Shown here: in pieces, positions 4,303 through 46,874 of the stretch
Layout of the letters: each line of letters begins with the position of its first letter
Numbering within the stretch: the first letter of the stretch is position 1
Position numbers and translations under genes: made by a program
Notes under the pieces: model-generated
What the model saw: the letters and a program-made list of their open reading frames with translations, nothing else
Database searches by the model: none
Told to the model about the DNA's origin: nothing
From: a virus
Taxonomy: Duplodnaviria; Heunggongvirae; Uroviricota; Caudoviricetes
DNA length: 58,193 nucleotides
Virus record (IMG/VR): IMGVR_UViG_3300045988_132327
Span: 1-58,193 of that record
Strand: one strand, 5' to 3'

Positions 4303-4303
4303 T

Positions 4304-4453: not shown

Positions 4454-4456
4454 CAC

Positions 4457-4816: not shown

Positions 4817-4817
4817 T

Positions 4818-5015: not shown

Positions 5016-5025
5016 GGCATAACAA

Positions 5026-6329: not shown

Positions 6330-6341
6330 CACGGAGTAATT

Positions 6342-6635: not shown

Positions 6636-6943
6636 TGAAAAATAATAAATCTTTTGATTTTACCCCATTATTACATGCGGCTTGTGCCGTTTTAGCTCAG
6701 GTGATTATGGGCACATTAACTGGTAACTGGATTTATGGAGCAATAGCAGGGATCACGTTCTTTATTGCGCGCGAACACACCCAGGCTGAATACCGATGGA
6801 TAAACAAGTTCGGGAACGGTAAGCGCAGCAATATGCCCTGGTGGGGCGGTTTCGATCCGCGCGTATGGGATATGGCGAGCTTGCAGGATTTTACCGTCCC
6901 TACTGTCGCCTGCCTTTGGGTTTTGGTTTTTGTGTATCTATGA
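6635..6943 (+). CDS. small integral membrane protein
   Basis: 102 aa; at least two hydrophobic helices. Confidence 0.45.
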   Translation: MKNNKSFDFTPLLHAACAVLAQVIMGTLTGNWIYGAIAGITFFIAREHTQAEYRWINKFGNGKRSNMPWWGGFDPRVWDMASLQDFTVPTVACLWVLVFVYL

Positions 6944-7710: not shown

Positions 7711-7720
7711 TCACCATGCT

Positions 7721-7752
7721 AAAATCCCCTCAATTCACAGAGGGGATTTTTG
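7721..7752 (+). terminator. rho-independent terminator
   Basis: hairpin aaaatcccctc-loop-gaggggatttt followed by T-run, after 6940..7710. Confidence 0.6.
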
Positions 7753-8022
7753 TATATGTTGCATAGAGTTTTATGGAAAAGCGTTATTGTCGGCGCGATC
7801 TTGGCTATGTCTGGGTGTGCAATGGTGCAATACAACGACGGTGAAAAGGTAAGCATCCAGTCAGATGGCTGGTATGGGCTGGATAGTCTGCAAAAAACCG
7901 CAGATAAAGCCTGTCAGCAATATGGGAAGTCTAAAGCCGTATATCAGCATAGCGCGAACGCTAATCCCCATCTCGCGCCCGGTACGGGCGTTCAGAACAC
8001 CATTTGGAAATGCGAACCATAA
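7750..8022 (+). CDS. small lipoprotein
   Basis: 90 aa; signal peptide with lipobox-like AMSGC. Confidence 0.5.
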   Translation: MYMLHRVLWKSVIVGAILAMSGCAMVQYNDGEKVSIQSDGWYGLDSLQKTADKACQQYGKSKAVYQHSANANPHLAPGTGVQNTIWKCEP

Positions 8023-8061
8023 TGCTGGTGGCATCTTTGTTACAAAGAGGAACACCTGCTC

Positions 8062-8412
8062 TCAATGCAGGGGATGAGATTTAACGAAATCGATCACCTT
8101 ATCTTGAACTTCGGAAAGAAGGTATTTTTCACGACCCAGGACGTCAGGATATTGACGTTCTGGCCTTACCAGATGCCGGAGCTTCCCATTAAGCAGAATG
8201 GCCTCAGAAAACACTTTTACGCTGTGCTTTATCCCCTCTGTTTCACTTTTCAGCGTCAAAATAAAGCGCAATTGCTTGTTAGCCTGATTCAGATTCAATA
8301 CCCGAATTTGCAGTTCGTCTATGCTATTTCGCAATGGGATTGATGCCACCACACTGGTGCAGTCTCTGATTGTCTGAATTGAACGGCTAACATTGAGAAC
8401 GTTATTGTGCAT
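8062..8412 (-). CDS. hypothetical protein
   Basis: 116-aa ORF opposite to flanking genes. Confidence 0.35.
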   Translation of the reverse strand: MHNNVLNVSRSIQTIRDCTSVVASIPLRNSIDELQIRVLNLNQANKQLRFILTLKSETEGIKHSVKVFSEAILLNGKLRHLVRPERQYPDVLGREKYLLSEVQDKVIDFVKSHPLH

Positions 8413-8444
8413 GTGCCTGATCCACTAACTCCGGGAGGTTTCTT

Positions 8445-8696
8445 GTGTCAGATCGAAATATAGCAGCTAAAAGCCAGGAAGAGCGAGACAAGGTGAACGT
8501 AGACCTTGCCGCCAGCGGCGTTGCTTACAAAGAACGGCTGAATATACCTGTGATTGCAGAGCAGGTGGCCCGTGAGCAACCGGAAAACCTGCGCGCCTAT
8601 TTCATGGAACGGCTACGGCACTACCGGCAGTTAAGCCTCCAGTTGCCAAAAGGGAGCGATCCGGTGTATCAGAACGAGGATGCACCAAAAAAATAA
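8445..8696 (+). CDS. hot: Hot, homolog of DNA polymerase III theta subunit (HolE)
   Basis: 83 aa; [29 protein letters not shown] motif series matches E. coli HolE as recalled; GTG start with gggagg SD. Confidence 0.8.
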
Positions 8697-14246: not shown

Positions 14247-15284
14247 ATGAGTAAGAAGTCGATCGAGAAAGAGTACAAACGGTTCCTGCAAACCGCTGAA
14301 CGGTGGAAAGAGCTGGTGGTCGCAAACTCTGTTTTCCATGATACCAGTTATTCCGGCGAGGAATTCCGCCATGTTGCACTAACACATGATCAGAATGTGC
14401 TAGAAGAAGCTGAAAAGTGCCTCACAGAATGGAAAGCCTTTGTTGACTTGTGCCGTAACGCTGACGGCAAAGCGTCTAACATTGTTGAGTCTGTATATTC
14501 TCCGATCCCATTCATTATCGAGGACACAAATCAAAGCACGCATATTGTTGTGCAAAGCGCGACCACCACCCGCTCATTTACGCGCGAAAATCTGCTCAAA
14601 AAATATGATGCAATTATAAAGAAAAGCCTGAAAAACAAGATATTTTCGCAGATTGTTGGTGCACTTGAAGAAGAGCGCCGTTTTTTCGCATCAGAACCTG
14701 AAGGGGAAGTTTACCGGGCGCGCAAAGATGGATACACAGATGTAGTGCTTACAACAAACATTGAAGGCAGCAATGCTCTGTCACGATTCAGGGTAGGCGC
14801 ACACGGAGCCTTAGTGTTCGCAAAACTTCCGAACACCACAGTGCCCGTTGTTAATAATGTCGGCGAACGTCGCAGCATTACTATTTATTCTGGGGTTGAG
14901 TCGATACCTTGCGGCCTGCTTGGTGACTTTAGTCTCTATCGCGTTCGCGATCTGGAGAAACACCAACCAAGCTATGTTGCGAAGTCATACATCTTGCGAA
15001 ACATCGACATCCGCAATGAGAGCTTAAAGAACAAATCAGCCAAAATGCTTGAGGAAGCCGATCCGGCTATTCGCCATATCATTGAGCGTAAAATACAGAC
15101 AGCACGCGAAGCGATGGCGAGACTGAATAAAATGGATCTGGAGTTGTTAGACGTAATGATGACATCCGGAGATGACCTGACAGGCATAAAACTGACAGAC
15201 GCGCGGAAAAGATACGGTAAAACCATAGAAGAACGTTACGGGTTCACTTTCTCCCAAACACAGCACGCCGCTAAACTCTGGTAA
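14247..15284 (+). CDS. hypothetical protein; positional candidate for C1-like immunity repressor
   Basis: 345 aa; convergent with pacB and divergent from cre across an operator-rich spacer; no recognisable domain. Confidence 0.45.
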   Translation: MSKKSIEKEYKRFLQTAERWKELVVANSVFHDTSYSGEEFRHVALTHDQNVLEEAEKCLTEWKAFVDLCRNADGKASNIVESVYSPIPFIIEDTNQSTHIVVQSATTTRSFTRENLLKKYDAIIKKSLKNKIFSQIVGALEEERRFFASEPEGEVYRARKDGYTDVVLTTNIEGSNALSRFRVGAHGALVFAKLPNTTVPVVNNVGERRSITIYSGVESIPCGLLGDFSLYRVRDLEKHQPSYVAKSYILRNIDIRNESLKNKSAKMLEEADPAIRHIIERKIQTAREAMARLNKMDLELLDVMMTSGDDLTGIKLTDARKRYGKTIEERYGFTFSQTQHAAKLW

Positions 15285-26817: not shown

Positions 26818-29800
26818 TTAGGCCGCATCGGCGATTATTTTACGCAGTTCATCTACCGAGTAACGCGTAGATACCATCCATGCAGGACGGTCAAAGTTCA
26901 CATCAGCAACCGGGTTTGCTTCAAAATTCCAGAAACGCCCGCCAATCTTCTTAATCGCGTCTTTGGCGTTCCGTATTGTCGAGGAACCTGGCTGGTCGGC
27001 AATGAGATAAACCGCGCCAACGTCTTCGCTGACGCTCCACCAGCGCCCGCGAACACGCGCCTTAGCGCGAATCGGCTTATCATTAACCACAATGATATAG
27101 TCATCATTCGCCGCTTCATCAGCTCTGGCTTCAGCCACTGCCGCCTGCTCTTCTCTTTTGCTTTCAGCCTGCTCAAGCCTTTTCGCGATCTCTGATTCAG
27201 TGGCCCCGCCGTTTTTCAGCGATACATAGTCCTGCCACGTTGCCGATTTGAGCGCATCCGGCAACTCATTCACATAGTCGCCGTCTTTCAACTCACGGGC
27301 GCGACGGGTAGCCATTTCTACCAGGCGATTAACAGAAACAGCATCAGCAAAATCGTCCTTACTAATGTGTTTTTCATCAAATGCATTGATGACAGCCCCA
27401 ACCTTAATCCACTGTGCTGCCGGTGATTCCAAGGGGTTATCAGCCTGAACAATGGCGAGTTTCGCTCCATCTACCCCATTATTCGCCAGCTGTTCCAATG
27501 CCGCCCATCCATCTGCATCACTGAGTGATTTATATTGCTCAAACAATGCATCGCGCCAGGCCACCAGCGCAGAACGTGTTTTTTCGATCTTCGCCTTAAT
27601 TTTCGCGATCTTGACCTGATTAAACATCCGTTCAATATCATCGATATTGCTAAAGGCTTTCATCCTGCCCTGGAATAAACGGTATGCCAGCACGGTCCTC
27701 CAGAATGATTCCAGACCTTCTCCGGACGGTTTACGGAACAAGCTAAGAATATCTTCAGAAGTGACTTTATTAAGCGAACGACCTGACAGACCACGCCCAG
27801 CCATCCAGTTTTCGAACTCCTGGGCAACATCATCCATCGTTGCTTGTGCGCCCCATGCCTGCATTCCCTGGATGTAATCATACCCATACAATGCCTGGAG
27901 GAATCCCTCTCCGTCCACGATATTCAGCGGATTATCACTGGCTTGTATTTTTGCCACTTCACGCTTCAGCGCCTCATTGTTGATATCAGGGTAAATCCAC
28001 TGCTCTGGTGCAATATCCGATGTACGCCCGATTTTCTGTCCTATCATGCCATCATAGGTCGATGACAGCGCGATCTGACCATCATCTGTGCGATAAGCCC
28101 AGTATTTAATAGCTGACCCACCGCCCCATGCATTACCAGGTTTACCAGCAATAACATTCATTACCCCATTGCGAATAGCATCATAGAACTGATCGCGAGT
28201 AAGTATTGTTGATAGCTGGTGGCACTGAACACCACGCGCAGCCGTTGCGCGCGATTCAGCTACCCCCTCTTCAAAAGTTACCGCTTCAATCACAGAGTCA
28301 AACGGCAATGTAACGATTGACCCCGGTGCTCGAGCGTAACGACTTGCTCTATCCAGCCAGGCGATACGGCAGAGGTATTGTGCTTTTTCACCGTCAATTT
28401 TTTCCACCCGGACAATCGCTGTTGTTTCGCGATCATCAATGACTGCACGGTAATAACTACCTTTATGCAACAGGATATTCTTGTCAGTGCGCATATATTC
28501 CTGTGGGTTCTGAATAACATCGATACTGATATCCAGCACACCAGACTTAATAGCGCGCTCCACATCACCACGAGAGCGTTTCATTATGGTATCCGCGTCT
28601 TTTGCCCTGGTGATCGCAAACCGCAGCACCCGCGCACGTTTTCTGTAGCTACTCAACTGCTCAAGCGCGTATTTTTGCCCATTCCTGTTCGTACCCGCTT
28701 TTATCAGGTCGTCAAGATTGCGCTGGTAATACTCTATCTGTTCCATCGCGCTTTTCAGTTCTGTCTCCATCATGCCGATATCTTTTCCGGCGGCGTTTGC
28801 CGCTTTCAGGTAGATATCGAGAGCATTGTTGGCCTCGCGCTGTGCTTTCAGTTTCAGACGTTCTTCACGCTCTTGCGCCTGGCGAGCCATGATTGCGCGG
28901 CGTTCTTCCGGGTTTGCCGCCAGCATAATGGCGCGTTCATCAGCATCATCCGCATCACCATTGGCGATCTCTGACATGTCGGAGGTCATCACCATCTTGA
29001 TCCAATCTTTCTTACGTTTCAGCGTATCCAGACGGAAGTCGTCGAATGTGCCTTTGCCACAATAGTAGTGAACATTGACCTTCTCTTGCGGTGAACCTAC
29101 GCGCGCACCGCGCCCATTTCGTTGGTCGATACTGGCTGGTGTCCAGGGTAGTGTCAGGTGGTGGATATCGGTTGTCCCGATGTGCAGGTTAATACCTACT
29201 TCAGCCTTCTTGTTACAGATTATGATACGCGTGCGACCTTCGTTATAGTCGGCGGCAATACCTTCCATGCCCTCAAGGCCAGCATCATTTTTAGCTGAGA
29301 GATAATCCTCATATTGGGCAAGTTTGCTGTAGTAGGTTTCCCATGCCCCTTCTTTGTATTCACCGTTTTTGTTTGGAGTAGGTTCGGTCGGCTTATTCAC
29401 CTTCTTCAGCTTGATGCCGCCAGCCTGGCTAACTGTCGTTGCATTGATAATGCCAATCTCCTGCTCCGGCATTTGCAGTGCACTGGCGATAATACGGCGC
29501 AGCTTCTGGTGCTGGGCTTTTTCATCAATAAAGACGATCTGCTTACCGTTCTTCAGACCTTCACGAAGATTTTCGATCAGCGCGGCATACTTCGGCGGGA
29601 TGGGGTGCGATACCTGCTGCATATCAATACCGGCAGCCGCAATGGCCTTAAGTATTTCAGCTTCCAGTTCAATGCTGGCACGTATTTCAACATGCGTCGG
29701 ATGTTCACTAAAAGCGGTCTTCACTACCTTGCTGGTACGCGTACTGACCAGCCCGCCAGCGCCGTCTTCCTCGGCCTCATCAACATCATCTGCCACTTTA

Positions 29801-32800
29801 CCGCCAGCTACTTTTGGCAAGGCATCAGCAATAGCTTTTACCTGGTCTGCAAGCTCAACGGGGAACTGGAATGTAATCGCACTGGCATACAGATCCGGGT
29901 CTATAGCAACCTTGTCCATGTCACGGATGATGGAGAAGATGAAATCATCCGGTTTGTCGTTAGTGATATGCCCGTTTTCATCGACTGTCAGCTCATCATT
30001 GCGACTTAACTCCTGAGCACGCTTACGAAGCTCTTCATAAGCAGTCTCCTGCTCCCCTGTCATCGGGATCTGCAAGGTGTTCTCAATGATGTCGGGAATT
30101 TTAACCGTTGCTCCGACATCTGCAGCAGTCTTCAGAGTGGTCCAACGATGGAAAATACCACGCAGGCCGTCAAGGTTCTGGAAGCCCACCAGCCCCTGCT
30201 TCTCTTCCACTTCCCCGGAAATTTTCTGGACCTGAACTGTGGCTGTTTTGCCAAACACACGAACGAAATCATCAGGCGTAATGATGCCCATGCGCATCCA
30301 CTCTTCCTGCGGAATGACAGTAGACAGCATGTTGAAGGCATCAATCGGACTGTTCACCAGCGGAGTTGCCGTCAGCATGACTACACCACGCCCGTTGTTG
30401 CGTTTCATCATGTACGCAGCTTTTACAGCCATGTCGCGGGCCATCTTGGATACTGCCGGGTTAGGCAAATATGCCAGTTGTCCCGCTTCACGCCCGGCAT
30501 TAAAGGAGTTGCGGTAGTTATGCCCCTCGTCGGCAATCACGCTATCGAAGTTCATATCCTCAAAGTACGGGATATTCTGCTTCTTCGTTGTACCGGTATT
30601 CGCGGCCTGATCCTTAATCTTGTTCTTCTTCTGCGCATCACGGTGTTTACCGGACGCCAGGTCAAGACGCCCCATTTCCACAGCATTAAAGACAGCTTGC
30701 TGTGAGTTCTCCTCGATGGTTTTTTCTCGTAGCGGGATAGACGCGAATTGTTCTTTTGTCATGATGACCGTTCGCCAATTTGACGACGGGATCATGTTCA
30801 TGCGCTGAACGATAACGGCGCTGGCGGACTCTTTCACAACATTTCTGGTAAGAGGCTGCCCGTTACTGTCGAGGCGTGGTTCGCCATTTTCATCAAGCAC
30901 CGGCGCGGTCAGAATATTTCCGCTGTCATCACGAACTTCATCCAAACCGATAAACATCATATTGGCGAAGGCATCAGCACTGTAGAAACTCTGTGCCTCG
31001 TGATACCAGTTCTGATAAACCGCCTTCGGAACAACAATACACGTGCGTTTAGTGCGACCTGTTTCGAAGTTATACGCCTCAAGCGCAAGCGCGGTCGTGG
31101 TTTTACCCAGCCCGGTACCAAATCCCATGATGCCGCGCCCATCTTCTGACAAGCGCCGAACTTCTTCATTCTGATAAGTAAGAGGAATGCGCTTTCCACT
31201 AAGCCCTTCCAGGCCAAGCGGTGCGTCAGAATGCGTGAACGGTATGAAACCATTGAATGCGTCGTTATACTCGCGGGCTATCTGATCAGCCTGCGGGTGA
31301 GTGCGTAACCAGTCGTTAAAGCTAACTTCCAGTTGAGCTATTTTATCCAGGTACTCGTTAGCGTTCTGCCCACGCGGTTTAACACCGTTCAGGTAGTTTT
31401 CTAACTGGTTCAGGAAGCCGTCTTTATTGTTGGCCTTCTTGAACTCATTCCCGTTTTTGCCGTTTACGGTTCGTAGCTGATAGCCGGTAAATACCCCGTC
31501 CTTACCTTCGTAATCGTCCGGAGATACCAGAATGCCATCGACGACCTTCAGATCAGGTTCAGTGTACTTAAACTCGTCATAGCCCTGCTCTGCCAGGAAC
31601 TCTTTTATCAAGCGGCGATCCAGCCAGCGGGCATTCAGATTAACGGTGACTTTATTTAGTGGCGTGAAAATACGTTTCTCTTCGATTTTCGCCAACTGAC
31701 GCTCAAAGTTCGCTTTCTGCTCACCTGTTGACGCATCACGCCAGCCCACCAGCAATGCTGTTTTGGTTGCAATATCGCCGCTGGTGGCGCGGTCCATCGG
31801 CAGCAGGCAGCCATACCCATCAATAGCGATATCATCAAATTTCGCCAGGTATTCAAGGGCCGCGTCGTCGTCCTCTGGCAGTTCACCAGCAAACGCCTCA
31901 CGAAAATCTCCCAGCGTTATAGGATTAAGGGCTACATCACTGAAAAGATGTGCTATCACTTGTTCAGGACGTGTAAAGTCAATACCGGCAGCACCATCCG
32001 TTACATCAAGTCGCCCTGCCAGAAGGTCAGAAGTGGAACCATCCTGTTTCACATTGCCAGTGAACGTCATCCAGTTTTTAGCGCCAGCTTCAGCAAGCCC
32101 ATTCAGCTTAATGGCGTGTGGTGGTCCATACTTCGCAACTTCTGCTGCCGCCAGGCGGGATGCATCTGCCAGTTTGTCATCAACGTTCACCCCCAGGTTA
32201 CGCAAATCAAGTGCCTTGTTGATCAACTGCCCTATCAGCGCACCGCGCATAACGCGCTCTCTATCTTTTTCTCGCTGCTTGCCAGCAAAGCGAATCATTG
32301 CTGCCACTTCATCACTGACAACCGATGGATAGTCGGACGCGATCGCCGATATCTGGTCCCATGACAAAGCCAGAATCCCGTTTGTTGACTGGAACGCGAT
32401 CTGCAGATCGCCAAACGTCGAAACACCATATCGACTTACATCAAGCGCGGAGGATTTGGTTGTCGTGTCCTTAACCCATTTCAGACCATCAAACTCATGC
32501 CAGATACCGCCTACAAGGCGTTTATCGCCCACTTTCGCGCCCTGCCATGCCTGAGTAGTTACGCCGAGCAAATCCCAATTGATGCGACTATCAAAGCGAC
32601 GAGATAGCGCGGTTTTCATCGACTCATTGGATACACGACCGTCTTTTTTCACCACCAGGGTATTGCGGAAGCTGGTACGTTCCATGTCGCCGTAAACAAA
32701 TCGCTTCCCTTCGGTTGTAAACCATTTTCCTTTGAGGAAGGTATCCCAAAGGACGTTTGCCGATTTGAGTGTTGAATCATCCGTGTCGGGGATCATCTCC

Positions 32801-33654
32801 AGGAAGGTTTCCGGGTGTTTACGCAATACCCATACGTCCACCACGGTATCTGTACCGGATTCGCTGAACGTACCGGAAGGCATACGATGTGCGCCCAAAA
32901 ATTCCGCTTTACGGCTGACTTTATCGCGCAATTTTTTATATTTCGTACCATCGGTCATGCCATTTGGCACCACCAATACGATAAGCCCACCAGGCTTAAC
33001 CTTGTCGATCGTGCGCAGCACAAAGTAATTGCCAACGTTCTTCTCGTTTGCATATGCCGGATCAAGCCCGGCAACGCCGGAACGCCCTTCACCAAACGGT
33101 ACGTTACCAACAGCGTGGTCATACATTGCATCTTTCGCCGCCAGCGCCTCAAACGCCCCGATATTCACATCGTCTTCCGGGTGCAAAAGCTGGTTTATTC
33201 GACCAGAAATCGGAGACAGTTCGGCGCTGGTCATTATCATGCCCTGCCGTTTTGTCTCCTGGAAAATACCTGTGCCCGCTGATGGTTCCAGTACGTGCCC
33301 GCCATCAATACCGTAGTCAGCAAACAGATCCCATATACCTTCAGCCATAAACTGTGGCGTGTAGTATTCGTATTGGCTGCCCTCACCATCTGTCAGGCCG
33401 CCTTCACCGGTATACCCGGCAAGAATCTGACGTTGTTCGTCAGTTAATTTCGCCCCATCGAAGCCGGGCGGAAGGGAATTAAGAAGATTTACTGCGGCAT
33501 TATTTGCTGCCCGGCGTGTTTTCTGAATACTGACGCCATCGGCTTTCCTGACGCCAAAGGTCGCAACAGCACGTAATTTATGCAACCGACTAACAATTTC
33601 AATCAGTTCGCCTAAGCTGGAGGCTTCACTGATTGAATGAAGTAGTTTGTCCAA
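26818..33654 (-). CDS. darB: DarB-like giant N6-adenine methyltransferase / SF2 helicase fusion (antirestriction)
   Basis: 2278 aa; MTase motifs LEPSAGTGIF and NVPFGE; helicase Walker A GFGTGLGKTT and DEGH box; size matches P1 DarB (about 2255 aa, recalled). Confidence 0.8.
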   Translation of the reverse strand: MDKLLHSISEASSLGELIEIVSRLHKLRAVATFGVRKADGVSIQKTRRAANNAAVNLLNSLPPGFDGAKLTDEQRQILAGYTGEGGLTDGEGSQYEYYTPQFMAEGIWDLFADYGIDGGHVLEPSAGTGIFQETKRQGMIMTSAELSPISGRINQLLHPEDDVNIGAFEALAAKDAMYDHAVGNVPFGEGRSGVAGLDPAYANEKNVGNYFVLRTIDKVKPGGLIVLVVPNGMTDGTKYKKLRDKVSRKAEFLGAHRMPSGTFSESGTDTVVDVWVLRKHPETFLEMIPDTDDSTLKSANVLWDTFLKGKWFTTEGKRFVYGDMERTSFRNTLVVKKDGRVSNESMKTALSRRFDSRINWDLLGVTTQAWQGAKVGDKRLVGGIWHEFDGLKWVKDTTTKSSALDVSRYGVSTFGDLQIAFQSTNGILALSWDQISAIASDYPSVVSDEVAAMIRFAGKQREKDRERVMRGALIGQLINKALDLRNLGVNVDDKLADASRLAAAEVAKYGPPHAIKLNGLAEAGAKNWMTFTGNVKQDGSTSDLLAGRLDVTDGAAGIDFTRPEQVIAHLFSDVALNPITLGDFREAFAGELPEDDDAALEYLAKFDDIAIDGYGCLLPMDRATSGDIATKTALLVGWRDASTGEQKANFERQLAKIEEKRIFTPLNKVTVNLNARWLDRRLIKEFLAEQGYDEFKYTEPDLKVVDGILVSPDDYEGKDGVFTGYQLRTVNGKNGNEFKKANNKDGFLNQLENYLNGVKPRGQNANEYLDKIAQLEVSFNDWLRTHPQADQIAREYNDAFNGFIPFTHSDAPLGLEGLSGKRIPLTYQNEEVRRLSEDGRGIMGFGTGLGKTTTALALEAYNFETGRTKRTCIVVPKAVYQNWYHEAQSFYSADAFANMMFIGLDEVRDDSGNILTAPVLDENGEPRLDSNGQPLTRNVVKESASAVIVQRMNMIPSSNWRTVIMTKEQFASIPLREKTIEENSQQAVFNAVEMGRLDLASGKHRDAQKKNKIKDQAANTGTTKKQNIPYFEDMNFDSVIADEGHNYRNSFNAGREAGQLAYLPNPAVSKMARDMAVKAAYMMKRNNGRGVVMLTATPLVNSPIDAFNMLSTVIPQEEWMRMGIITPDDFVRVFGKTATVQVQKISGEVEEKQGLVGFQNLDGLRGIFHRWTTLKTAADVGATVKIPDIIENTLQIPMTGEQETAYEELRKRAQELSRNDELTVDENGHITNDKPDDFIFSIIRDMDKVAIDPDLYASAITFQFPVELADQVKAIADALPKVAGGKVADDVDEAEEDGAGGLVSTRTSKVVKTAFSEHPTHVEIRASIELEAEILKAIAAAGIDMQQVSHPIPPKYAALIENLREGLKNGKQIVFIDEKAQHQKLRRIIASALQMPEQEIGIINATTVSQAGGIKLKKVNKPTEPTPNKNGEYKEGAWETYYSKLAQYEDYLSAKNDAGLEGMEGIAADYNEGRTRIIICNKKAEVGINLHIGTTDIHHLTLPWTPASIDQRNGRGARVGSPQEKVNVHYYCGKGTFDDFRLDTLKRKKDWIKMVMTSDMSEIANGDADDADERAIMLAANPEERRAIMARQAQEREERLKLKAQREANNALDIYLKAANAAGKDIGMMETELKSAMEQIEYYQRNLDDLIKAGTNRNGQKYALEQLSSYRKRARVLRFAITRAKDADTIMKRSRGDVERAIKSGVLDISIDVIQNPQEYMRTDKNILLHKGSYYRAVIDDRETTAIVRVEKIDGEKAQYLCRIAWLDRASRYARAPGSIVTLPFDSVIEAVTFEEGVAESRATAARGVQCHQLSTILTRDQFYDAIRNGVMNVIAGKPGNAWGGGSAIKYWAYRTDDGQIALSSTYDGMIGQKIGRTSDIAPEQWIYPDINNEALKREVAKIQASDNPLNIVDGEGFLQALYGYDYIQGMQAWGAQATMDDVAQEFENWMAGRGLSGRSLNKVTSEDILSLFRKPSGEGLESFWRTVLAYRLFQGRMKAFSNIDDIERMFNQVKIAKIKAKIEKTRSALVAWRDALFEQYKSLSDADGWAALEQLANNGVDGAKLAIVQADNPLESPAAQWIKVGAVINAFDEKHISKDDFADAVSVNRLVEMATRRARELKDGDYVNELPDALKSATWQDYVSLKNGGATESEIAKRLEQAESKREEQAAVAEARADEAANDDYIIVVNDKPIRAKARVRGRWWSVSEDVGAVYLIADQPGSSTIRNAKDAIKKIGGRFWNFEANPVADVNFDRPAWMVSTRYSVDELRKIIADAA

Positions 33655-33805
33655 AGGATTTCCCCCTCTAAACCGTAAAAAATTCCGCTATGCGGTACGG
33701 TTGAGAGGGTATGGAGAATGTTATTTTCAGGGGGACGATACTACCGTCAAAATCACATACTCCCCATAGTTTGCCTACTTATTAACCCATGACCGGGGGA
33801 AAAAT

Positions 33806-34291
33806 ATGGCAAACATTGAACCTCGCTGGCTAATTGAAGCCCGTAAGCACATTGGCCTGACTGAAATAAAAGGCGCTAAACACAACCCTGAAATCGTTCA
33901 GTTCTGGCGCGACATCAAGCGCGGCGGAATTAAAGACGATGAAACGCCGTGGTGCGCAGCATTTGTCGGTGCAATGCTGGAACGTGTAGGCATCCGCTCA
34001 ACAAGATTTGAGTCGGCAAAATCCTATCTGGATTGGGGCGAGAAATTAGATACACCGGCATACGGATGTATCGTTGTATTTACCCGCGTAGGCGGTGGGC
34101 ACGTAGGCTTCGTTGTCGGACGCCGCGCCAATGGCGATCTGCTTGTCTTGGGTGGGAACCAGGGGGATGCGGTAAATATTCGCGCATTCCCAACATCAAG
34201 AGTGTCTGGCTATCGCTGGCCTGCTGGCGAACCACGCAATACCGCTCTGTTACCAGTCGGAGACGCAGCAACCTCAACTAATGAGGCATGA
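33806..34291 (+). CDS. CHAP/NlpC-P60-like peptidoglycan hydrolase (TIGR02594-like)
   Basis: 161 aa; Cys (PWCAAF) and His (GGGHVGF) catalytic-like motifs. Confidence 0.55.
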   Translation: MANIEPRWLIEARKHIGLTEIKGAKHNPEIVQFWRDIKRGGIKDDETPWCAAFVGAMLERVGIRSTRFESAKSYLDWGEKLDTPAYGCIVVFTRVGGGHVGFVVGRRANGDLLVLGGNQGDAVNIRAFPTSRVSGYRWPAGEPRNTALLPVGDAATSTNEA

Positions 34292-34315
34292 AAAAAGCCC
34301 CGGCCTGGCCGGGGC
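34291..34315 (-). terminator. hairpin terminator between convergent genes
   Basis: gccccggcc-tg-gccggggc with U-run on minus-strand side. Confidence 0.5.
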
Positions 34316-34323
34316 ATCACGCT

Positions 34324-34524
34324 TCAAGTCACGATCCAATCATTACCGACTATATCAGCCGTCGATAAATCAACTTCCCGGATCTGGAGTCCATTAATAC
34401 AAAACCATCCGGTAGTAGAGTAATTATCAGGCCAGGCCCATACACCAACACTCCATGCTTTACGGCGGCACACTTCAGCCTGTCCTTCCCTGATTTTTTT
34501 TACCGCCTGCATGATGTCCATCAC
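34324..34524 (-). CDS. small DUF2829-like protein
   Basis: 66 aa; AVKKIREGQAEVCRRKAWS...W...DW pattern. Confidence 0.35.
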   Translation of the reverse strand: MMDIMQAVKKIREGQAEVCRRKAWSVGVWAWPDNYSTTGWFCINGLQIREVDLSTADIVGNDWIVT

Positions 34525-39724: not shown

Positions 39725-39907
39725 GAGTCACCGCGAAATGTTTTCAGTTTGCGGCAGCATAATCAGTATGTGATTTTTGATGATGGATCTTTTCAACTAG
39801 AAATATTGGCTGGCCCCTCTCGTAACAAAGTGAAGAATAAAACTTGAATATGCACATTGTGCGCATTAAGATTGAAAAAGTTGACCACTTTGCTGCGGAG
39901 AAATCCC

Positions 39908-40210
39908 ATGAAAAGCTCTTTAATTAATTCCAAATTACACCAACTTGCTATCAAAAATCGAGTTCCTGCATGGTCGGTTTACATGCATATCAGCCGCGCA
40001 TGTCTGAGCAATGAAAACATTTACAATCTGCAAATTCTAAGCCGGGAAGGCAGGACTTTGTTTAGCGTTGCAGAGGATTCCTATAAGGCCTGGGATATGC
40101 TGGATGACGCGTTAAGCCAATACGCGCAAACAGAAGAATGCCAAAAAGAATGGGCCAGGTACTGTGATGAAGGGATGCCATGCTGCGGTCTATTCGGCGC
40201 AGCTCTGTGA
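39908..40210 (+). CDS. hypothetical protein
   Basis: internal ATG of ORF 39857..40210; 100 aa. Confidence 0.35.
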   Translation: MKSSLINSKLHQLAIKNRVPAWSVYMHISRACLSNENIYNLQILSREGRTLFSVAEDSYKAWDMLDDALSQYAQTEECQKEWARYCDEGMPCCGLFGAAL

Positions 40211-40222
40211 ATCGATTCAACG

Positions 40223-40486
40223 ATGATATACTTCGTTGCGAATCACAGCATTGGCAAAGGGCATATTGTGAAACAACTCCCACCAAACACCCCGGAAACT
40301 ATAATTGAAATCCGCCAGCGAATGGGGCTAACGCAAACGGAGTTAGCCCACAAAATGGGGTATCAACTCCGGGCTTGGCAATTCAAAGAAGATAGAAATA
40401 AACCGAGACGCCTTATGGCTGGTGAATTTGAGTACCTGTTATTGCTTGCTGGAGAGCATCCTGAATTTATTCTTACACCACGCTAA
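40223..40486 (+). CDS. XRE-family HTH transcriptional regulator
   Basis: IIEIRQRMGLTQTELAHKMG HTH signature. Confidence 0.55.
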   Translation: MIYFVANHSIGKGHIVKQLPPNTPETIIEIRQRMGLTQTELAHKMGYQLRAWQFKEDRNKPRRLMAGEFEYLLLLAGEHPEFILTPR

Positions 40487-40507
40487 AAAAACCCGCCTGA
40501 CGGCGGG
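40485..40507 (-). terminator. rho-independent terminator
   Basis: cccgcc-tgac-ggcggg with T-run on minus strand; between convergent genes. Confidence 0.6.
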
Positions 40508-40520
40508 ATTATCAATCATA

Positions 40521-40814
40521 TCAATTCACATCAATGTCTTGATATGATTCGCCAGTATCGTCTTCGTCGTCAGGATCTCCTTCCACCTCTGGCCACTCAA
40601 CCTCCCAGCCAACAGTTTCCAGGCTCCGCAGAACAAACACCCCATCGGCATGAATGGTATTCACGATCCCCATTGCGGAATTTGTGTTGATAAAGCGTAA
40701 ATCTTGCGCAATATTTTCTTCCGAAATATCGCCTTCAAATATACGCAATGTGCCGTCATCAGAGCATTCAACAATCCCTCTAATCCCAGCGGGACTCACA
40801 ATGCTATACTTCAT
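40521..40814 (-). CDS. hypothetical acidic protein
   Basis: 97 aa, Asp/Glu-rich C-terminus; last gene of dar-like operon. Confidence 0.4.
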   Translation of the reverse strand: MKYSIVSPAGIRGIVECSDDGTLRIFEGDISEENIAQDLRFINTNSAMGIVNTIHADGVFVLRSLETVGWEVEWPEVEGDPDDEDDTGESYQDIDVN

Positions 40815-43800
40815 TTTGCAACTCCTTCATACATCCCAAGAAAAATTCCAGCACGCCGTCATTGTTTAATACAGAGTTAGTCGCCTGCTCCGGATCGGCA
40901 TACATCTGCAAGGCCATAGAAAAAATCTCAGTCGCCCTGCAATTGCTTAATGCAGGTGGCTTTGATATAAATCTGCCGCTGACAGAACTTACCGTATTTT
41001 CCATATAAATTTTAGACATATATCCATGACTTAGGTCGGTTCGCACCAAATACTCAGCACTGCCACGGCTACCAATATTATGATAAGAAACTTTACCGTT
41101 AGTTTTTGATTTAATGAAGGCTTTGGCCCTCTCCAATAGATGGGGATTTGAATGTTCTATATGGTGACCTATTTCATGCCATAATACACGCTCGTGATCA
41201 CTATTAGCATCAATTGTTATATTCCCATTTCGACTTGTAAAAGCACGAACATTGTTCTTGTGGTTAATATTTTTTAATGTAGATAAAGTCCCTCCTGAAA
41301 TAATATAGGCTTTTTCAATCGTCTCGCGAATACTGTATGCTTTACGGGAGAAAGTTTCATTATCGTGACCACTTAACTGCTCTGCTTCATCAGAAATAGC
41401 AATCCCACGACTCCATTCCTTAGACTGGTCATGTGACACATTTGACGATTCAAGAATCATGTCAAATGCGGCTCTGACTTTTTTATGTACTACATTTTCA
41501 AGCGCATTAGGATAGGCTTTTTGTCCACGTGTTAATGAAGCTATTTCATATAGTTCTGCTTGCAAGTCTTCCGGTATGTCCAGATTAAAAACAAGCATTT
41601 TTTTCAGATCATATCCAATCCCATGATCATTCTGGTGCAAAACCTCAGCAAGGTAGTCAGTGAGTTTTTCCTTATTTGACCTAACTTTATTGATTTGTTC
41701 TATAGTAAAGTCAACACGCTCCTTGATTCCGTAATATGAGGAATGCTCTGCTAATTCCACTATCTCCTTAAGCCTGACAAGTGTCTCAATATACGCATCA
41801 GCGATCTCCTCTGCCGTTAGTTCAGAGCTAACTCCGACACTGGCTGTTATTTTCCTACCAGCCGCCATAATATCGTCGATATTATGCAAGCTCTTTTTGA
41901 ATAACTTCAAAGTATTTTGGATTATGCACACCATCTCTTCTGCGCTTCCAGCTTTATTCATTTCCTTTCTAAATCTTAAAGCTGTTTTCTCTGCAATAGA
42001 CGCTGGAGATTTTAAATAGTTACCTAACCAAACAAGACAACCATTGCGCAATTCATCAATACTAAAGTCATCAGGAATATGTTTTGCTGCATTATGTAAA
42101 ACACGTATAAATTGTTCAGCGGGCACGCCTTCTTCTGATATGTTGCAAAACGTTTCAATATCACAATCAATATTTCTTTCATCTGCGAGCGAAGGAGCTT
42201 CATCTCCTTTTTCAATCGCGTCACGCAGTGCGTTAGCATAAAAATTGCTGCGTTGATAAGACAATAACATCGTTGTTAACACAGCGTCGCTGTATCCATA
42301 ACGTTTAGCCCACTCCTTAATCTCATTAACGGTGACATTGCGAATATAAAAACCAAGTTCCAAAAATACATTGCGCTTTATTTTTTTTGCGGACTCCTTA
42401 ATTTTTTCTGACACCTTCACGATTCGGATCAAGTCCTCCACGCTGGTCGCATCAGCAATTAGCTTTGAAATGTATGGTTCGACATCTCCTGAAACCGATT
42501 CAAACATGGCGAAATTAAGCCCTTTACCTTCGCCATACTCAGCCTCAATTTCATCAGAAACGGCAGATAAAATGCTACGCAGATCGACATCTCCGCCGCC
42601 GAACATATCGCCTAACGCTTGTTGCTGGTGAATAAGTTCATCGTTAATTTTTTGCGCCAGTTTCTTGAAAGCTGCCCCCATTCGCTTAGCGCTTCGGTTG
42701 TTGGCAACAATAAACAGAGCAAGCGCTTCTGCTTCCGGAGTGCTATCTCCAAACAATCCACGCTGTGCGATCACCTCTTCTACTGCCTGACCGTTATCTT
42801 TTGCTTCACGAACAAGGTTAATTGCTTCCTGTAGCGCGGCAATAGCCTGTTTATCCAGACCATTCAATTGCTCTATACCGTCTACCAGTCCGGTTACCGT
42901 GTCATGGTGAACATCACCTGAAAGCGACTGCATTTGCGCAAAATCGCTGGCTGCCGTATTTAATGCGGTAAGAATGTTACGCATTTCCGGATCTGGCTCT
43001 TCCGCCACCAGCCGAACAAGCCTTTCATCCTTGTACGCTTTGGCAAAAATTGCATTCTGGATGCGGTCGATAAGTTGTTTCGTTGGACGCCCATCGGCAG
43101 TAAGCAAACCTGCCGTCGCCGTATCACCTATTTCGCGCAAAAACGCACGAATAAACGCATCATTGGACCGCGCCAGTAGATTTCCATCATCTGAAGGATT
43201 AAATAGCGCCATGACGCTCTCAGTGAGAAATTGCGCATCCGCATACGCTTTTTCACTTGCAGCCATCTCTTGCAGATCGCTGATGTTTGAATCACGGGCA
43301 AATTGTGCGCGGTCTACATCTGTGAGTCTTTCTCGCACCAATACGGGCATAGACATTTGTGAAATGTCGTCAGGATTCAGACCAAACTCTTTTGCATGAT
43401 CGATCAGGTACTGGCGATATTCATCCGCCTGCCCTTGCTCATAGGCACGCCAGATACCCATGCTCCTTCCGTTGCCGGATTCAACAACGTTGTCCGGACC
43501 AACTATCGGCGCTCCGTGGCTGCTCATGCCGGAATCCGTTAATTGTGCCGGGCGTAAATTGGAGGCAATACGGTTAACCTGGAGTTTGCTTGATAGCCGT
43601 GTACGGTCACGTGGCTGGAGTTCTTCCGGGAAGGCCGGATTAATCGTACCGTCAAGGTTGTTCGAAATGATCAGACTGCTGGCATCAACGACCTTAAAAG
43701 CCGTCTTTACCTCTGCCCCTTTACTGGTGACTACGTAACTACTGCGCCCCTGGCGTGTTTCTCGCCTCTCTAATGAAGAAACCAGCGCAATAACACTGTT

Positions 43801-43845
43801 AATGTCTGCTGCTTCGGATAGCGCGGAAGTAACTGACTTGTTCAA
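40804..43845 (-). CDS. large virion-associated protein, DdrB-like, with C-terminal HExxH zinc-metallopeptidase motif
   Basis: 1013 aa; WHEIGHHIEH encoded at 41152..41181; position downstream of darA-like gene. Confidence 0.5.
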   Translation of the reverse strand: MNKSVTSALSEAADINSVIALVSSLERRETRQGRSSYVVTSKGAEVKTAFKVVDASSLIISNNLDGTINPAFPEELQPRDRTRLSSKLQVNRIASNLRPAQLTDSGMSSHGAPIVGPDNVVESGNGRSMGIWRAYEQGQADEYRQYLIDHAKEFGLNPDDISQMSMPVLVRERLTDVDRAQFARDSNISDLQEMAASEKAYADAQFLTESVMALFNPSDDGNLLARSNDAFIRAFLREIGDTATAGLLTADGRPTKQLIDRIQNAIFAKAYKDERLVRLVAEEPDPEMRNILTALNTAASDFAQMQSLSGDVHHDTVTGLVDGIEQLNGLDKQAIAALQEAINLVREAKDNGQAVEEVIAQRGLFGDSTPEAEALALFIVANNRSAKRMGAAFKKLAQKINDELIHQQQALGDMFGGGDVDLRSILSAVSDEIEAEYGEGKGLNFAMFESVSGDVEPYISKLIADATSVEDLIRIVKVSEKIKESAKKIKRNVFLELGFYIRNVTVNEIKEWAKRYGYSDAVLTTMLLSYQRSNFYANALRDAIEKGDEAPSLADERNIDCDIETFCNISEEGVPAEQFIRVLHNAAKHIPDDFSIDELRNGCLVWLGNYLKSPASIAEKTALRFRKEMNKAGSAEEMVCIIQNTLKLFKKSLHNIDDIMAAGRKITASVGVSSELTAEEIADAYIETLVRLKEIVELAEHSSYYGIKERVDFTIEQINKVRSNKEKLTDYLAEVLHQNDHGIGYDLKKMLVFNLDIPEDLQAELYEIASLTRGQKAYPNALENVVHKKVRAAFDMILESSNVSHDQSKEWSRGIAISDEAEQLSGHDNETFSRKAYSIRETIEKAYIISGGTLSTLKNINHKNNVRAFTSRNGNITIDANSDHERVLWHEIGHHIEHSNPHLLERAKAFIKSKTNGKVSYHNIGSRGSAEYLVRTDLSHGYMSKIYMENTVSSVSGRFISKPPALSNCRATEIFSMALQMYADPEQATNSVLNNDGVLEFFLGCMKELQNEV

Positions 43846-43939: not shown

Positions 43940-44308
43940 TTACCCGGCATAACCGTTGGCTTTCACCCAGCTTATGGTCTGTTCTTTAGCCTGCTCCAAC
44001 GTAAGGAACTCGCCAACATAGTTTGAGATCCCACGCAGCGCATCAATAAATTCCATTTGTGTGGACTTTGTGAACACACCGCCCAGGAAGTCAGTCACTA
44101 TCTTAGGGACTTCATCTACAACAGGATCAGTCTGTTGTTGCGGTTCCGCTGCCGGTTGCGCGGCAGTCCCCAGGCCCAATTTCAGCATCACATCAACAAT
44201 CTGCTTACCAATGGTGACGCGTTGCAATACTGGCGCAGTTTTCTGCGCCTGCATTAGATCTGATAGCTCTTTACCTAATTTCAGGCGGTCTAAAACAGAG
44301 ATGGTCAT
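43940..44308 (-). CDS. DdrA-like small protein
   Basis: 122 aa, between darA-like and ddrB-like genes. Confidence 0.35.
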   Translation of the reverse strand: MTISVLDRLKLGKELSDLMQAQKTAPVLQRVTIGKQIVDVMLKLGLGTAAQPAAEPQQQTDPVVDEVPKIVTDFLGGVFTKSTQMEFIDALRGISNYVGEFLTLEQAKEQTISWVKANGYAG

Positions 44309-46245
44309 TAAGCACCTCCCTGCTGAATTTCAGCCAGAATGTTGATCAGGTAGTCAACTGCTGCACCCACAGTGGCTTCGTTCTCGTCGTATCGACCTGC
44401 ACTGATTAGAGCGTTTGCTGCTTCCTGCACATGATCAAGTTCAGCACTGATGACCGTCAGATCGCGGGATGTAAACTGCTCCGGCACGGATTTCAGGTAC
44501 TCCAGCGCTTTATCTGCCTCCTGATCAGCTTCACTTGCTGATTCACCAGCTTCTTCTGGCTCCGGCTCCTGTTCTGGTGCTAGTTGTGGTTGTGATTCCG
44601 GCTCAACCACATGCTCTGTTTTTACTTCGCTTGAATGATTTTGAAGGGCGTTATACACGTCCATAATGAAAAGGTTCTCCCCATCACCAAGTGGATACGC
44701 CACATTTGGAAACGCTTTGCGGAAAAGAATTTTCACTTGCGCCTTGAATGTTTTCAGGTCACTGCCAAACAGGTCTACATAGCCATCAATATGTTTCGAC
44801 ATGCTGGACACAACCAATTGGCCTGCAAAATCTTTCAGCTCATCTTCATCAGGAAGATAGAGCAACTCGTACTGGCTGACTTCTTCATCTGTCAGTTTAC
44901 GGTCATACGTAATGATACCGTGACGAGCATATTCGTAATACTGATCAGCCTGGTCAGGACGATCAAGCACGGCTGTATTTCCATCCGGCACCGCACCAAC
45001 ACCCGCCGGGCGCGATTGAAGAGCATAGCGGTATTTGCCTACATGCTGAGCATCTTGCGGAGATGCTGGTTGTGGATCAGAATCTTGTTGTAATTCTGGC
45101 TGTGACTGAACAGTTGGCTCCGGCTGTCCTGGCAACACATCTACTTTGTATTTATCAGCATTATGTTCTCGATAGGCTTTAAGTAGTTTGGTTGCCGCGT
45201 CTGCCAGGCTGCCACCTTTGACGTCACCGACATCAATACTGAAATTACCTTCTGGTGCCGCGATCGTAACGAAGCTATCACCATCTAACGTCACATAATT
45301 TACAACAGCGCCGTTATCCAGCGTAGTTTTACCATCAGTGGCAAGGTTATGTTTTACGTGTCGAAGTTGGTCATTAAAAGTTCTTTCTTTTGCTTTATTC
45401 TTTTTATAAGACAGCAACTTATCTCGTTTTTCCTGCAACTCTGCGTTAAGGACTTTCTGTGCATCAAGTTGTTTCTGCATTTCCGCGAGGGCATTGCGCT
45501 TTTCTGTCAGTCCACGCTGCGCTACTTCCACCCGATCAATCATCATTGACCGTTCTTCAGCCAGCTTATCAGCTTCATTGAGATAACTCTCAATATCCGC
45601 CTTCATTTTGTCCTGTCGCTCTTTTGCCTTCTTGAATTTTGGGCTGTTACGCTCAATCAAATTAGAAAGCGCCTGGCAAACCTGGCTTAAAGAAACATCT
45701 CTCCCGCCGATCGGGGCAACAACGTGAGTTACGTTACGCTTATTAAGTAAAAACTGAAATGCAACCAGTTCATCATTACTCTTGATTTTCGCGCCATCGG
45801 CGGTTGGAGAGTGGAAGATGATACTTGTGCTTTGCCCATCAGTCAGTGGTATCTGTGCTGTTAAAACTGGAATATTAGCTACGCGACGAACACGCCCGAT
45901 AATTGCTCCGCCAATACAATTCCGACCATTTTCATCCGCCCCGGCTTCATCAGTTCCTGCTGATATATTCGTTCCATTCAAGCCACGATTTAGCGCACGC
46001 ACGAAAGCCCGCATTGTTTGTGCAAGCCTAATTCTGGTCGTAGTAATGGCCTCAAACATAGCTTCGTCGGACACAACAAGAATTTCATTGCCCATATAGG
46101 CAAGCTCGATATCTTCTAATGTAGCCGCTTCAAAAATCAGATCATCTTCACTTAAATCCTCCGAAGACCAGCGGCTCGGTGTATAACCAGGAATCGTATC
46201 AGCGAAAGTAGATTGAATATTGATCCGTATGGGATTCTTAATCAT
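44308..46245 (-). CDS. darA: DarA-like antirestriction/head protein
   Basis: 645 aa (P1 DarA about 639 aa, recalled); downstream of lydA-lydB-like genes as in P1. Confidence 0.5.
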   Translation of the reverse strand: MIKNPIRINIQSTFADTIPGYTPSRWSSEDLSEDDLIFEAATLEDIELAYMGNEILVVSDEAMFEAITTTRIRLAQTMRAFVRALNRGLNGTNISAGTDEAGADENGRNCIGGAIIGRVRRVANIPVLTAQIPLTDGQSTSIIFHSPTADGAKIKSNDELVAFQFLLNKRNVTHVVAPIGGRDVSLSQVCQALSNLIERNSPKFKKAKERQDKMKADIESYLNEADKLAEERSMMIDRVEVAQRGLTEKRNALAEMQKQLDAQKVLNAELQEKRDKLLSYKKNKAKERTFNDQLRHVKHNLATDGKTTLDNGAVVNYVTLDGDSFVTIAAPEGNFSIDVGDVKGGSLADAATKLLKAYREHNADKYKVDVLPGQPEPTVQSQPELQQDSDPQPASPQDAQHVGKYRYALQSRPAGVGAVPDGNTAVLDRPDQADQYYEYARHGIITYDRKLTDEEVSQYELLYLPDEDELKDFAGQLVVSSMSKHIDGYVDLFGSDLKTFKAQVKILFRKAFPNVAYPLGDGENLFIMDVYNALQNHSSEVKTEHVVEPESQPQLAPEQEPEPEEAGESASEADQEADKALEYLKSVPEQFTSRDLTVISAELDHVQEAANALISAGRYDENEATVGAAVDYLINILAEIQQGGA

Positions 46246-46874
46246 GCTTCATCCTCCAGACGCGCGATTTCTTCTTTAAGCGCACGCGTCTTAGCTTGTT
46301 CCTGAGACAATGCCGCTTTAACGTTATCCGCATCTTGCATTGCCTTGTCTGACTTGCTTTGGATCTTAGCCAGTTTGTCGTTAGCATTAGCGATATCTTC
46401 ACGAAGCGCATCACGTGATTCTTTCGCTTCAGCTAACTTCTGAGCGTTGGATTTAACCCCTTGTCGCTTCTTATTTCCTTCATCAATATTTTTTGCTGCA
46501 CGAGCAAGTTTTCGAGCTAATGATTTCTGGAAAGATGTTGCTCCGCGATTAAATAAAGCCGCGAGAGACTGCCCCAAAGCCGCCATTGTTTTTACTGGCT
46601 TGAACGGTACTGTTTTACCGTTCAGTTTTATCCCAGATATATCTCCGGTATCGTTAACCTGGACTTCCATTGTCTGTTCATCAATACCAACAAGGGTAAA
46701 CGTGCGTGTCATGATCCCATCTTTCTTCCTGCCATTGCTGGCAGGGATCACCCTCGCTATCTTGTAACCACCTTTGCTGATTTCTTTGACGAGTTTTGCC
46801 AGTCCCTTTTCGTTTAACTCATCATAATTAAGAAGAACATAATTAGCCTTATTCGACATTCCAGTCTCCTTCAC
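46242..46874 (-). CDS. Hdf-like protein
   Basis: 210 aa, coiled-coil C-terminus; upstream of darA-like gene. Confidence 0.35.
   Translation of the reverse strand: MKETGMSNKANYVLLNYDELNEKGLAKLVKEISKGGYKIARVIPASNGRKKDGIMTRTFTLVGIDEQTMEVQVNDTGDISGIKLNGKTVPFKPVKTMAALGQSLAALFNRGATSFQKSLARKLARAAKNIDEGNKKRQGVKSNAQKLAEAKESRDALREDIANANDKLAKIQSKSDKAMQDADNVKAALSQEQAKTRALKEEIARLEDEA

Follow-up and report, generated by a model that had tools for sequence, protein, structure and literature searches.

This analysis concerns a 58,193-nucleotide stretch of viral DNA, positions 1 to 58,193 of IMG/VR record IMGVR_UViG_3300045988_132327 (Caudoviricetes), referred to here in its full length as the window. It is very probably part of a plasmid prophage of the P1 family resembling Escherichia phage D6, in which an open reading frame (ORF) of 2278 codons encodes the antirestriction protein DarB, the 144-residue product of the following gene is Ulx, and the 86-residue product of the gene after that is a diverged member of the Lxc/Bof family and no component of the Dar system. 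In phage P1, the Dar system consists of six virion proteins, of which Hdf and DarA enter first, while DdrB and Ulx are needed for DarB to be incorporated; protection against EcoB and EcoK is owed to DarB together with Ulx and DdrB (PMC12810830, PMC9024508). As an identification of darB and ulx the finding adds nothing new: the D6 record already carries both annotations and elements of this kind are common. What it does add, on a small scale but open to testing, is the assignment of the 86-residue protein to the Lxc family and a conserved hairpin where darB and ulx meet.

DarB and its domains

The darB homologue is read from the minus strand and begins at a TTG codon, about 8 nucleotides downstream of a GAGGGGG Shine-Dalgarno sequence. 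The gene, its parts and the two small genes that follow it are located as follows.

26818..33654, minus strand: darB homologue, one uninterrupted ORF of 2278 codons with a TTG start
33565..33654, minus strand: DarB residues 1-30, the site matching the capsid-targeting sequence of P1 DarB, weakly conserved
32755..33384, minus strand: N6-adenine methyltransferase domain, residues about 91-300, with EYYTP, LEPSAGTGIF and GNVPFG
30055..31197, minus strand: N-lobe of the SNF2/SF2 helicase, residues about 820-1200, with GTGLGKTT, DEGHNYRN and LTATP
28975..29637, minus strand: C-lobe of the helicase, residues about 1340-1560, with motif VI, QRNGRGARVG
26821..28974, minus strand: C-terminal region of about 700-720 residues, without a profile match and poorly conserved among homologues
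26347..26781, minus strand: ulx (olxA) homologue, 144 codons with an ATG start, directly 3' of darB
26084..26344, minus strand: divergent gene of the Lxc/Bof family, 86 codons, its ATG 2 nucleotides past the ulx stop codon; annotated as hypothetical in D6 (orf13)

Aligned by BLASTP with P1 DarB (YP_006479), the predicted protein is collinear over its full length from residue 1, at 40% identity (1518 bits, E value 0). In the PHROGs collection, phrog_1685 spans residues 1-2278, and matches are also found to phrog_11801 and to phrog_10089, the latter labelled "DarB-like antirestriction". A preliminary description of this DNA, made from the letters alone, had called the ORF a DarB-like methyltransferase-helicase. 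That call is borne out by the full-length homology to P1 DarB, by the full-length PHROG match and by the presence in the window of every other component of the P1 Dar system. The ORF lies on the minus strand, as do the two co-directional downstream ORFs of 144 and 86 codons that the description had listed, and the motifs it quoted are all found.

Among polyvalent proteins, DarB has been described as the archetypal "DNA methylase-helicase dyad", in which an adenine methyltransferase resembling EcoKI and TaqI, with an N-terminal TP motif, is fused to a SWI2/SNF2 ATPase (PMC5512222). The protein encoded in the window follows this plan. On the methyltransferase side it has the TP motif (EYYTP, residues 96-100), motif I (LEPSAGTGIF, 122-131) and motif IV (GNVPFGE, 183-189); on the helicase side it has GFGTGLGKTT (844-853), ADEGHNYRN (1041-1049), LTATP (1094-1098) and QRNGRGARVG (1511-1520). 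Conservation was assessed in an alignment of seven homologues, namely those of the window, P1, Cronobacter phage JK004 and four metagenomic or genomic contigs, which share 40-54% identity with the window protein. All seven keep unchanged the TP motif and motifs I and IV of the methyltransferase, as well as motifs I, II, III and VI of the helicase; conservation is poor in the N-terminal 50 residues, and the last 700 or so contain almost no invariant positions.

Domain searches with hidden Markov models (HMMs), the check that the preliminary description had itself proposed, upheld the helicase outright and gave the methyltransferase a marginal score. The Pfam families SNF2-rel_dom (E value 2.8e-12), ResIII (2.9e-5) and Helicase_C (4e-5) all score above their cut-offs; N6_Mtase reaches 20.1 bits, marginally under its gathering cut-off of 20.4 bits. 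A sequence search of the PDB, however, matches residues 91-263 to the type I methyltransferase subunit HsdM (E value 9e-4), and the helicase C-lobe to INO80. The HsdM match, together with the invariance of the motifs in seven homologues, backs the marginal N6_Mtase score and is the reason for assigning a methyltransferase domain. No nuclease domain was detected by Pfam in DarB.

The DarB proteins of the window and of P1 agree in the TP motif and motifs I and IV of the methyltransferase and in motifs I, II, III and VI of the SNF2 part, and in both genomes the gene is followed by ulx and a small gene of the lxc family. Both genomes also encode hdf-darA-ddrA-ddrB. They differ in that the window protein is 23 residues longer, starts at TTG and shows little conservation over its C-terminal region, some 700 residues in length.

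One relative of the locus has a different appearance. On a contig of GCA_026552445.1 (locus L012, positions 3474-8568) the darB homologue is called as three genes, of 727, 251 and 720 codons. This DarB may be disrupted or pseudogenised, though ulx and an lxc-like gene still come after it.

Relationship to phage D6

The best megablast match for positions 26000-34000 is Escherichia phage D6, with 98.5% nucleotide identity over 100% of the query, whereas P1, P7 and SJ46 align with the same segment over a stretch of about 170 nucleotides only. In D6 (MF356679, NC_050154) the genes orf15, orf14 and orf13 are equal to darB, ulx and the 86-codon gene of the window in length, order and spacing, and their products are 99.1%, 93.8% and 98.8% identical to those of the window. 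The darB gene of the window differs from that of D6 by 65 synonymous and 20 non-synonymous codons, a sign of purifying selection; it is a real gene and no chance ORF.

The labels in the D6 GenBank record are explicit for two of the three genes. Orf15 is described as "similar to P1 gene darB; defense against restriction" and orf14 as "similar to P1 gene ulx", while orf13 is a "hypothetical protein". The preliminary description had treated the two downstream ORFs as uncharacterised, a label that the standing annotation of darB and ulx in D6 corrects.

D6-like plasmid prophages are a widespread group that has already been described. In PLSDB, at least 94 plasmids of E. coli or Salmonella cover at least 80% of positions 24000-48000 of the window, the best being E. 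coli p95_MLI121, with 97.4%. In the RefSeq annotation of this plasmid, DarB is named "SNF2-related protein" and both small genes are "hypothetical".

A local BLAST comparison of the whole window with D6 indicates a mosaic relative and not D6 itself. The difference reaches into the Dar genes. The window has a full-length ddrB of 1013 codons and an hxr homologue, whereas D6 retains no more of ddrB than its first 454 codons, after which come the unrelated orf23 and orf24 (DUF4145). The two elements therefore offer a natural comparison for the role of DdrB in the packaging of DarB. The hxr homologue itself (97 codons, 40521..40814; product 41% identical to P1 Hxr) lies within the variant region, 39777-43845.

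Ulx and the other Dar components

The 144-residue protein is 48% identical to P1 Ulx (E value 7e-46) and matches phrog_1629, "Ulx-like anti-restriction", with an E value of 7.5e-59; it equals P1 Ulx and P7 OlxA in length and position. A tentative reading of this ORF as Ulx-like in the preliminary description thus proves sound. In all of the more than 25 loci collected, ulx directly follows darB.

All six components of the P1 Dar system have homologues in the window. The five partners of DarB (Hdf, DarA, DdrA, DdrB and Ulx) are 33-48% identical to their P1 counterparts, and the four that are encoded away from darB are found at the following positions.

46242..46874, minus strand: hdf homologue, 210 codons, product 40% identical to P1, Pfam DarA_N
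44308..46245, minus strand: darA homologue, 645 codons, product 40% identical to P1, Pfam DarA_N and DarA_C
43940..44308, minus strand: ddrA homologue, 122 codons, product 33% identical to P1, no Pfam domain
40804..43845, minus strand: ddrB homologue, 1013 codons, product 44% identical to P1 over its whole length, Pfam ddrB-ParB

How DarB may act

What is shown for the window itself is homology, conserved motifs, a common gene order and a full set of Dar genes, whereas packaging, injection, the antirestriction phenotype, methylation and co-repressor activity are inferred. The action of a D6-type DarB can be outlined by analogy with P1. Late in infection, some 40 copies of the protein, of about 250 kDa, would be loaded into the capsid by means of an N-terminal targeting signal; in P1, the first 30 residues of DarB suffice to target a reporter to the capsid (PMC9024508). 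Loading would depend on Hdf, DarA, DdrB and Ulx, with the 144-residue Ulx acting as a helper for packaging. DarB would then be ejected with the DNA and would shield that same molecule in cis from type I restriction of the EcoK and EcoB kind, in keeping with the finding that Dar protection in P1 operates in cis only (PMC12707154). In the most likely mode of action, the SNF2-type motor would track along the entering duplex while the EcoKI/TaqI-like domain modified or occluded adenines in type I target sites. The 86-residue Lxc-like protein would have no share in these steps and would instead serve a C1 repressor that has diverged to an equal degree.

Several points weigh against this outline. 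The mechanism of DarB has been termed "not defined" even for P1, and the anti-EcoKI effect of plasmid-borne darB has been traced to an artefact of the DNA, arising from its Chi and EcoKI sites, and not to the protein (PMC11109961). No match to the P1 late-promoter consensus (AAGTKAYT-N5-TANNNT) is found upstream of darB, and the window as a whole has 4 matches where 3.2 are expected. Finally, motif IV of the methyltransferase reads NVPF in all seven homologues, where the canonical form is NPPF or NPPY.

The departure in motif IV bears on whether DarB methylates DNA at all. It has to be considered that DarB might protect without methylating: its translocating SNF2 motor, a roadblock or remodeller, would displace type I enzymes or make them stall, and the methyltransferase-like domain would do no more than bind S-adenosylmethionine or DNA. 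It is the presence of NVPF in every homologue that gives this idea its weight, and it fits the reports that no methylation by DarB is on record (PMC11109961) and that the strictly cis action of Dar led to a hypothesis of physical shielding (PMC12707154). However, proteins as far apart as 40-54% identity show no change in motif I, in the TP motif or at the N, P and F of motif IV, which argues for a catalytic pocket maintained by selection, and the analysis of the dyad proteins favours methylation coupled to translocation (PMC5512222). Protection without methylation is thus a serious possibility, although a doubtful one.

The 86-residue protein as a member of the Lxc/Bof family

The P1 gene lxc (bof) encodes an 82-residue co-repressor that stabilises the C1 repressor on its operators, joins C1 and operator DNA in a ternary complex, and counteracts Coi (PMC8546580). 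In P1 and JK004 alike the gene order is darB-ulx-lxc. The 86-codon gene of the window occupies the same place after ulx and is, to judge from profile searches and gene order, the highly diverged Lxc/Bof homologue of the D6 group. Between the two proteins, of 82 and 86 residues, only about 17% of positions are identical, a level invisible to BLASTP; conserved columns held in common are a W, F-L-R/K, V-R and E-W.

Simple comparisons speak against this assignment. BLASTP of the 86-residue protein against P1 Lxc gives no alignment, and a first hhalign comparison with a shallow profile of 6 sequences was weak, at a probability of 2%. In P1, lxc is expressed from constitutive promoters of its own that lie inside ulx (P1lxc, P2lxc and P3lxc), whereas inside the window ulx (26347-26781, minus strand) no sigma-70-like match of at least 9/12 was detected by a consensus scan that is in itself insensitive. 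Two further searches were uninformative: tblastn of the protein against all phage records returned D6 as the sole match, and a homologue search with P1 Lxc as query yielded for the most part copies that were nearly identical or frameshifted, from which little could be gained for a profile. Since the shallow profile was so weak, an exhaustive search of representative sequences and a larger number of loci were needed to make it informative.

Run with HMMER against 1.8 billion representatives, the family profile returned only 11 proteins, 10 of them between 84 and 94 residues long. Five of the distant matches were looked up, and all five are encoded directly 3' of genes for a DarB-like protein of 2230-2300 residues and an Ulx-like protein of 142-150 residues, on contigs of 17-105 kb. 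A scan of GTDB genomes with the Ulx alignment added 15 loci in Pantoea, Enterobacter, Citrobacter, Xenorhabdus, Serratia, Erwinia and Escherichia; in each of the 15 an ORF of 79-95 codons comes directly after ulx, and together the sequences form a gradation between D6-like and P1-like. In more than 25 loci the family member keeps strictly to its position after ulx.

Profiles built from this material connect the 86-residue protein to Lxc by several routes. Already in a Smith-Waterman alignment it scores against JK004 Lxc above composition-matched shuffles (z 4.9-5.8). Compared by hhalign, the broad family profile and the Lxc profile align over 68 columns with a probability of 81.6% and an E value of 1.1e-5, and the real Lxc sequences reach 18.0 and 11.4 bits where the maximum among 2000 shuffles is 6.4. 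A jackhmmer search was seeded with the window protein and run against the proteins of the family loci and 2550 background ORFs; it recruited JK004 Lxc in round 2 (E value 6.9e-5) and P1 Lxc in round 3 (3.3e-10), and converged without drawing in any of the 2550 unrelated ORFs. An HMM from which every recognised Lxc had been left out was also compared with the complete P1 genome; among all its 1032 six-frame ORFs the sole match was lxc, at an E value of 7e-6, the next best standing at 0.13. An AlphaFold model of the protein (pLDDT, the predicted local distance difference test score, 72.7) gave no Foldseek match in BFVD at an E value of 0.001 or less, and did not retrieve Lxc.

The search of the P1 ORFs disposes of another identity. 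The preliminary description had suggested that the 86-residue protein could be an UpfA-like partner of DarB; the family HMM misses the upfA ORF of P1 (58222-58614 in OP279344) and, among the ORFs of that genome, finds lxc only.

A presumed partner for the putative co-repressor is encoded elsewhere in the window.

14247..15284, plus strand: C1-like prophage repressor, 345 codons, product 20% identical to P1 C1 (E value 6e-8), annotated as C1-like in D6

Relative to P1, the window proteins are 41% (DarB), 46% (Ulx), 20% (C1) and 17% (Lxc-like) identical, and the corresponding figures for JK004 are 85%, 83%, 76% and 61%. The divergence of the Lxc-like protein thus tracks that of C1 rather than that of DarB and Ulx, which fits a protein of immunity. 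More broadly, the structural and Dar proteins of the window stay 40-48% identical to P1, whereas the C1-like protein has diverged as far as the Lxc-like one. The 86-residue protein is most likely, on this pattern of homology, the co-repressor for the C1-like protein encoded at 14247..15284.

Its constant place beside ulx does allow a different thought, that the protein is a third component alongside DarB and Ulx, a packaging or stabilising partner, instead of or besides being a C1 co-repressor. All the loci examined, those of P1, JK004, 5 contigs of metagenomic or genomic origin and 15 genomes from GTDB, have a family member of 79-95 residues directly after ulx; it often overlaps the ulx stop codon or starts within a few nucleotides of it, the gap in the window being 2 nucleotides. 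The failure to find a promoter-like site inside ulx keeps this reading alive, since the gene may then be co-transcribed with darB and ulx. Related phage-plasmids, however, are expected to show synteny in any case. P1 Lxc/Bof, whose experimentally established role is that of C1 co-repressor, belongs to the family, and the extreme divergence of the protein parallels that of C1, unlike DarB or Ulx. This third-component reading is weakened further because the P1 virion proteome paper never mentions Lxc (0 occurrences of "lxc"; PMC9024508). A role in the Dar system is accordingly judged unlikely.

With the protein taken as a relative of Lxc, orf13 of D6 and its copies in RefSeq could be named as putative co-repressors of the Lxc/Bof family, which would supply the missing immunity component of D6. 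The family, thought to be confined to close relatives of P1, would then extend to P1-like elements of Pantoea, Xenorhabdus, Serratia, Erwinia and others.

A conserved hairpin between darB and ulx

The 36-nucleotide spacer between darB and ulx reads, on the minus strand, AAGGAG-CGGCCCC-AACC-GGGGCCG-AATTTGA-ATG, and is identical in D6. It contains two elements.

26807..26812, minus strand: AAGGAG, Shine-Dalgarno-like, directly 5' of the hairpin
26789..26806, minus strand: GC hairpin, CGGCCCC-AACC-GGGGCCG, 7 nucleotides before the ulx ATG

All 19 loci examined have a hairpin of like design at the darB-ulx junction, and 15 different stems, all of them paired, occur among them (the loci with the hairpin include the window, L003, L006, L007, L009, L011, L013 and L016-L029). 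The geometry varies little: a GC stem of 6-8 base pairs, a loop of 3-5 nucleotides and a distance of 5-9 nucleotides from stem to ATG. In 16 of the 17 distinct spacers GGAG lies 0-1 nucleotides 5' of the stem. The loops are often GNRA, that of P1 being UUCG, and the stems are not followed by a U-run. Within the window the combination of Shine-Dalgarno sequence and hairpin occurs once.

Alignment of the spacers with MAFFT and RNAalifold misaligned the hairpins and predicted no structure, and the sequences were aligned on their own predicted stems instead; the resulting count of 96/96 paired cells is for this reason partly circular. Independent support for the hairpin comes from the minimum free energies calculated locus by locus (z-scores of -2.4 to -4.7 against shuffles) and from the diversity of the stems.

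When the hairpin is folded, the spacing between the Shine-Dalgarno sequence and the AUG falls from 25 to 7 nucleotides. In phage T4, split translation initiation regions with a hairpin between the Shine-Dalgarno sequence and the AUG have been proven for genes 38 and 25 (PMC3014915). The darB-ulx spacer resembles these in that a stable hairpin separates the two elements and its folding restores a functional spacing of 5-10 nucleotides; it differs in belonging to another phage family and to other genes, and in the window it is known from its geometry alone. By this analogy the junction is a candidate split ribosome-binding site of the type found in T4 genes 38 and 25, and so a candidate for a second natural example of such a site. 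The hairpin could instead be a stabiliser of the mRNA, a processing site or an attenuator.

A wider role for the junction can be imagined if darB, ulx and lxc form a functional unit. The Shine-Dalgarno-hairpin-AUG arrangement would then set the output of Ulx, and by coupling that of the Lxc-like protein, relative to the DarB message, and a protein of the Lxc family might be translated from the late dar mRNA or even be carried in the virion. Were this the case, the incoming genome would be both shielded from restriction and brought sooner under repression by C1, and the 86-residue protein would have a second, Dar-linked role. Such a unit seems improbable.

Scans of the window for sigma-70 promoters and for terminators gave no excess over the expectation from shuffles. 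Two individual stem-loops flank the genes under discussion.

26048..26071, minus strand: terminator-like stem-loop 13 nucleotides past the stop codon of the 86-codon ORF, with a weak T tail
34297-34315, minus strand: strong terminator-like stem-loop, 8 GC pairs followed by TTTTTT, between the ORF at 34324..34524 and a hydrolase gene

The first is the probable 3' end of the darB-ulx-lxc module, and the two together may delimit its transcription unit.

Restriction sites, defence models and neighbouring genes

Recognition sites for EcoKI (AACN6GTGC) and EcoBI (TGAN8TGCT) occur in the window 8 and 11 times, against 8.0 and 10.3 expected. As these sites are not avoided, the genome is a target for type I restriction, and their frequency is consistent with reliance on a protein-based countermeasure.

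Matches to models of bacterial defence systems raise the question of whether DarB is a prophage enzyme that benefits the host, of the kind found in DISARM, Zorya, Dpd or type ISP restriction-modification, and no antirestriction protein. The helicase C-lobe and the methyltransferase do give partial matches to DrmD, ZorD, DpdE, BrxHII and MTase_II, but these cover generic helicase or methyltransferase segments only, at 16-45 bits where NCBIfam cut-offs lie between 500 and 1100, and such an identity can hardly be reconciled with the full-length collinear homology to P1 DarB or with partner genes that are those of the Dar system and of no defence system. Membership of a defence system was rejected because the matches are short and far below the cut-offs (the best in NCBIfam reaches 44.5 bits against a cut-off of 610, and those in PADLOC at most 38 bits over short helicase or methyltransferase segments) and because of the lack of a nuclease domain.

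Copies of the Chi sequence, GCTGGTGG, number 34 in the window, where 1.75 would be expected to judge from shuffles. Inside darB there are six, at 27037, 27561, 28215, 30186, 31746 and 31780. An enrichment of Chi has likewise been reported for P1, where it underlies the plasmid artefact in assays of darB antirestriction (PMC11109961).

The surroundings of darB differ between P1 and the window, the latter having no res-mod genes downstream. Just upstream of darB in the window, and divergent from it, lies a gene for a peptidoglycan hydrolase with a CHAP domain (33806-34291, plus strand). In P1 and the metagenomic relatives, the divergent neighbour at this position is the portal gene prt.

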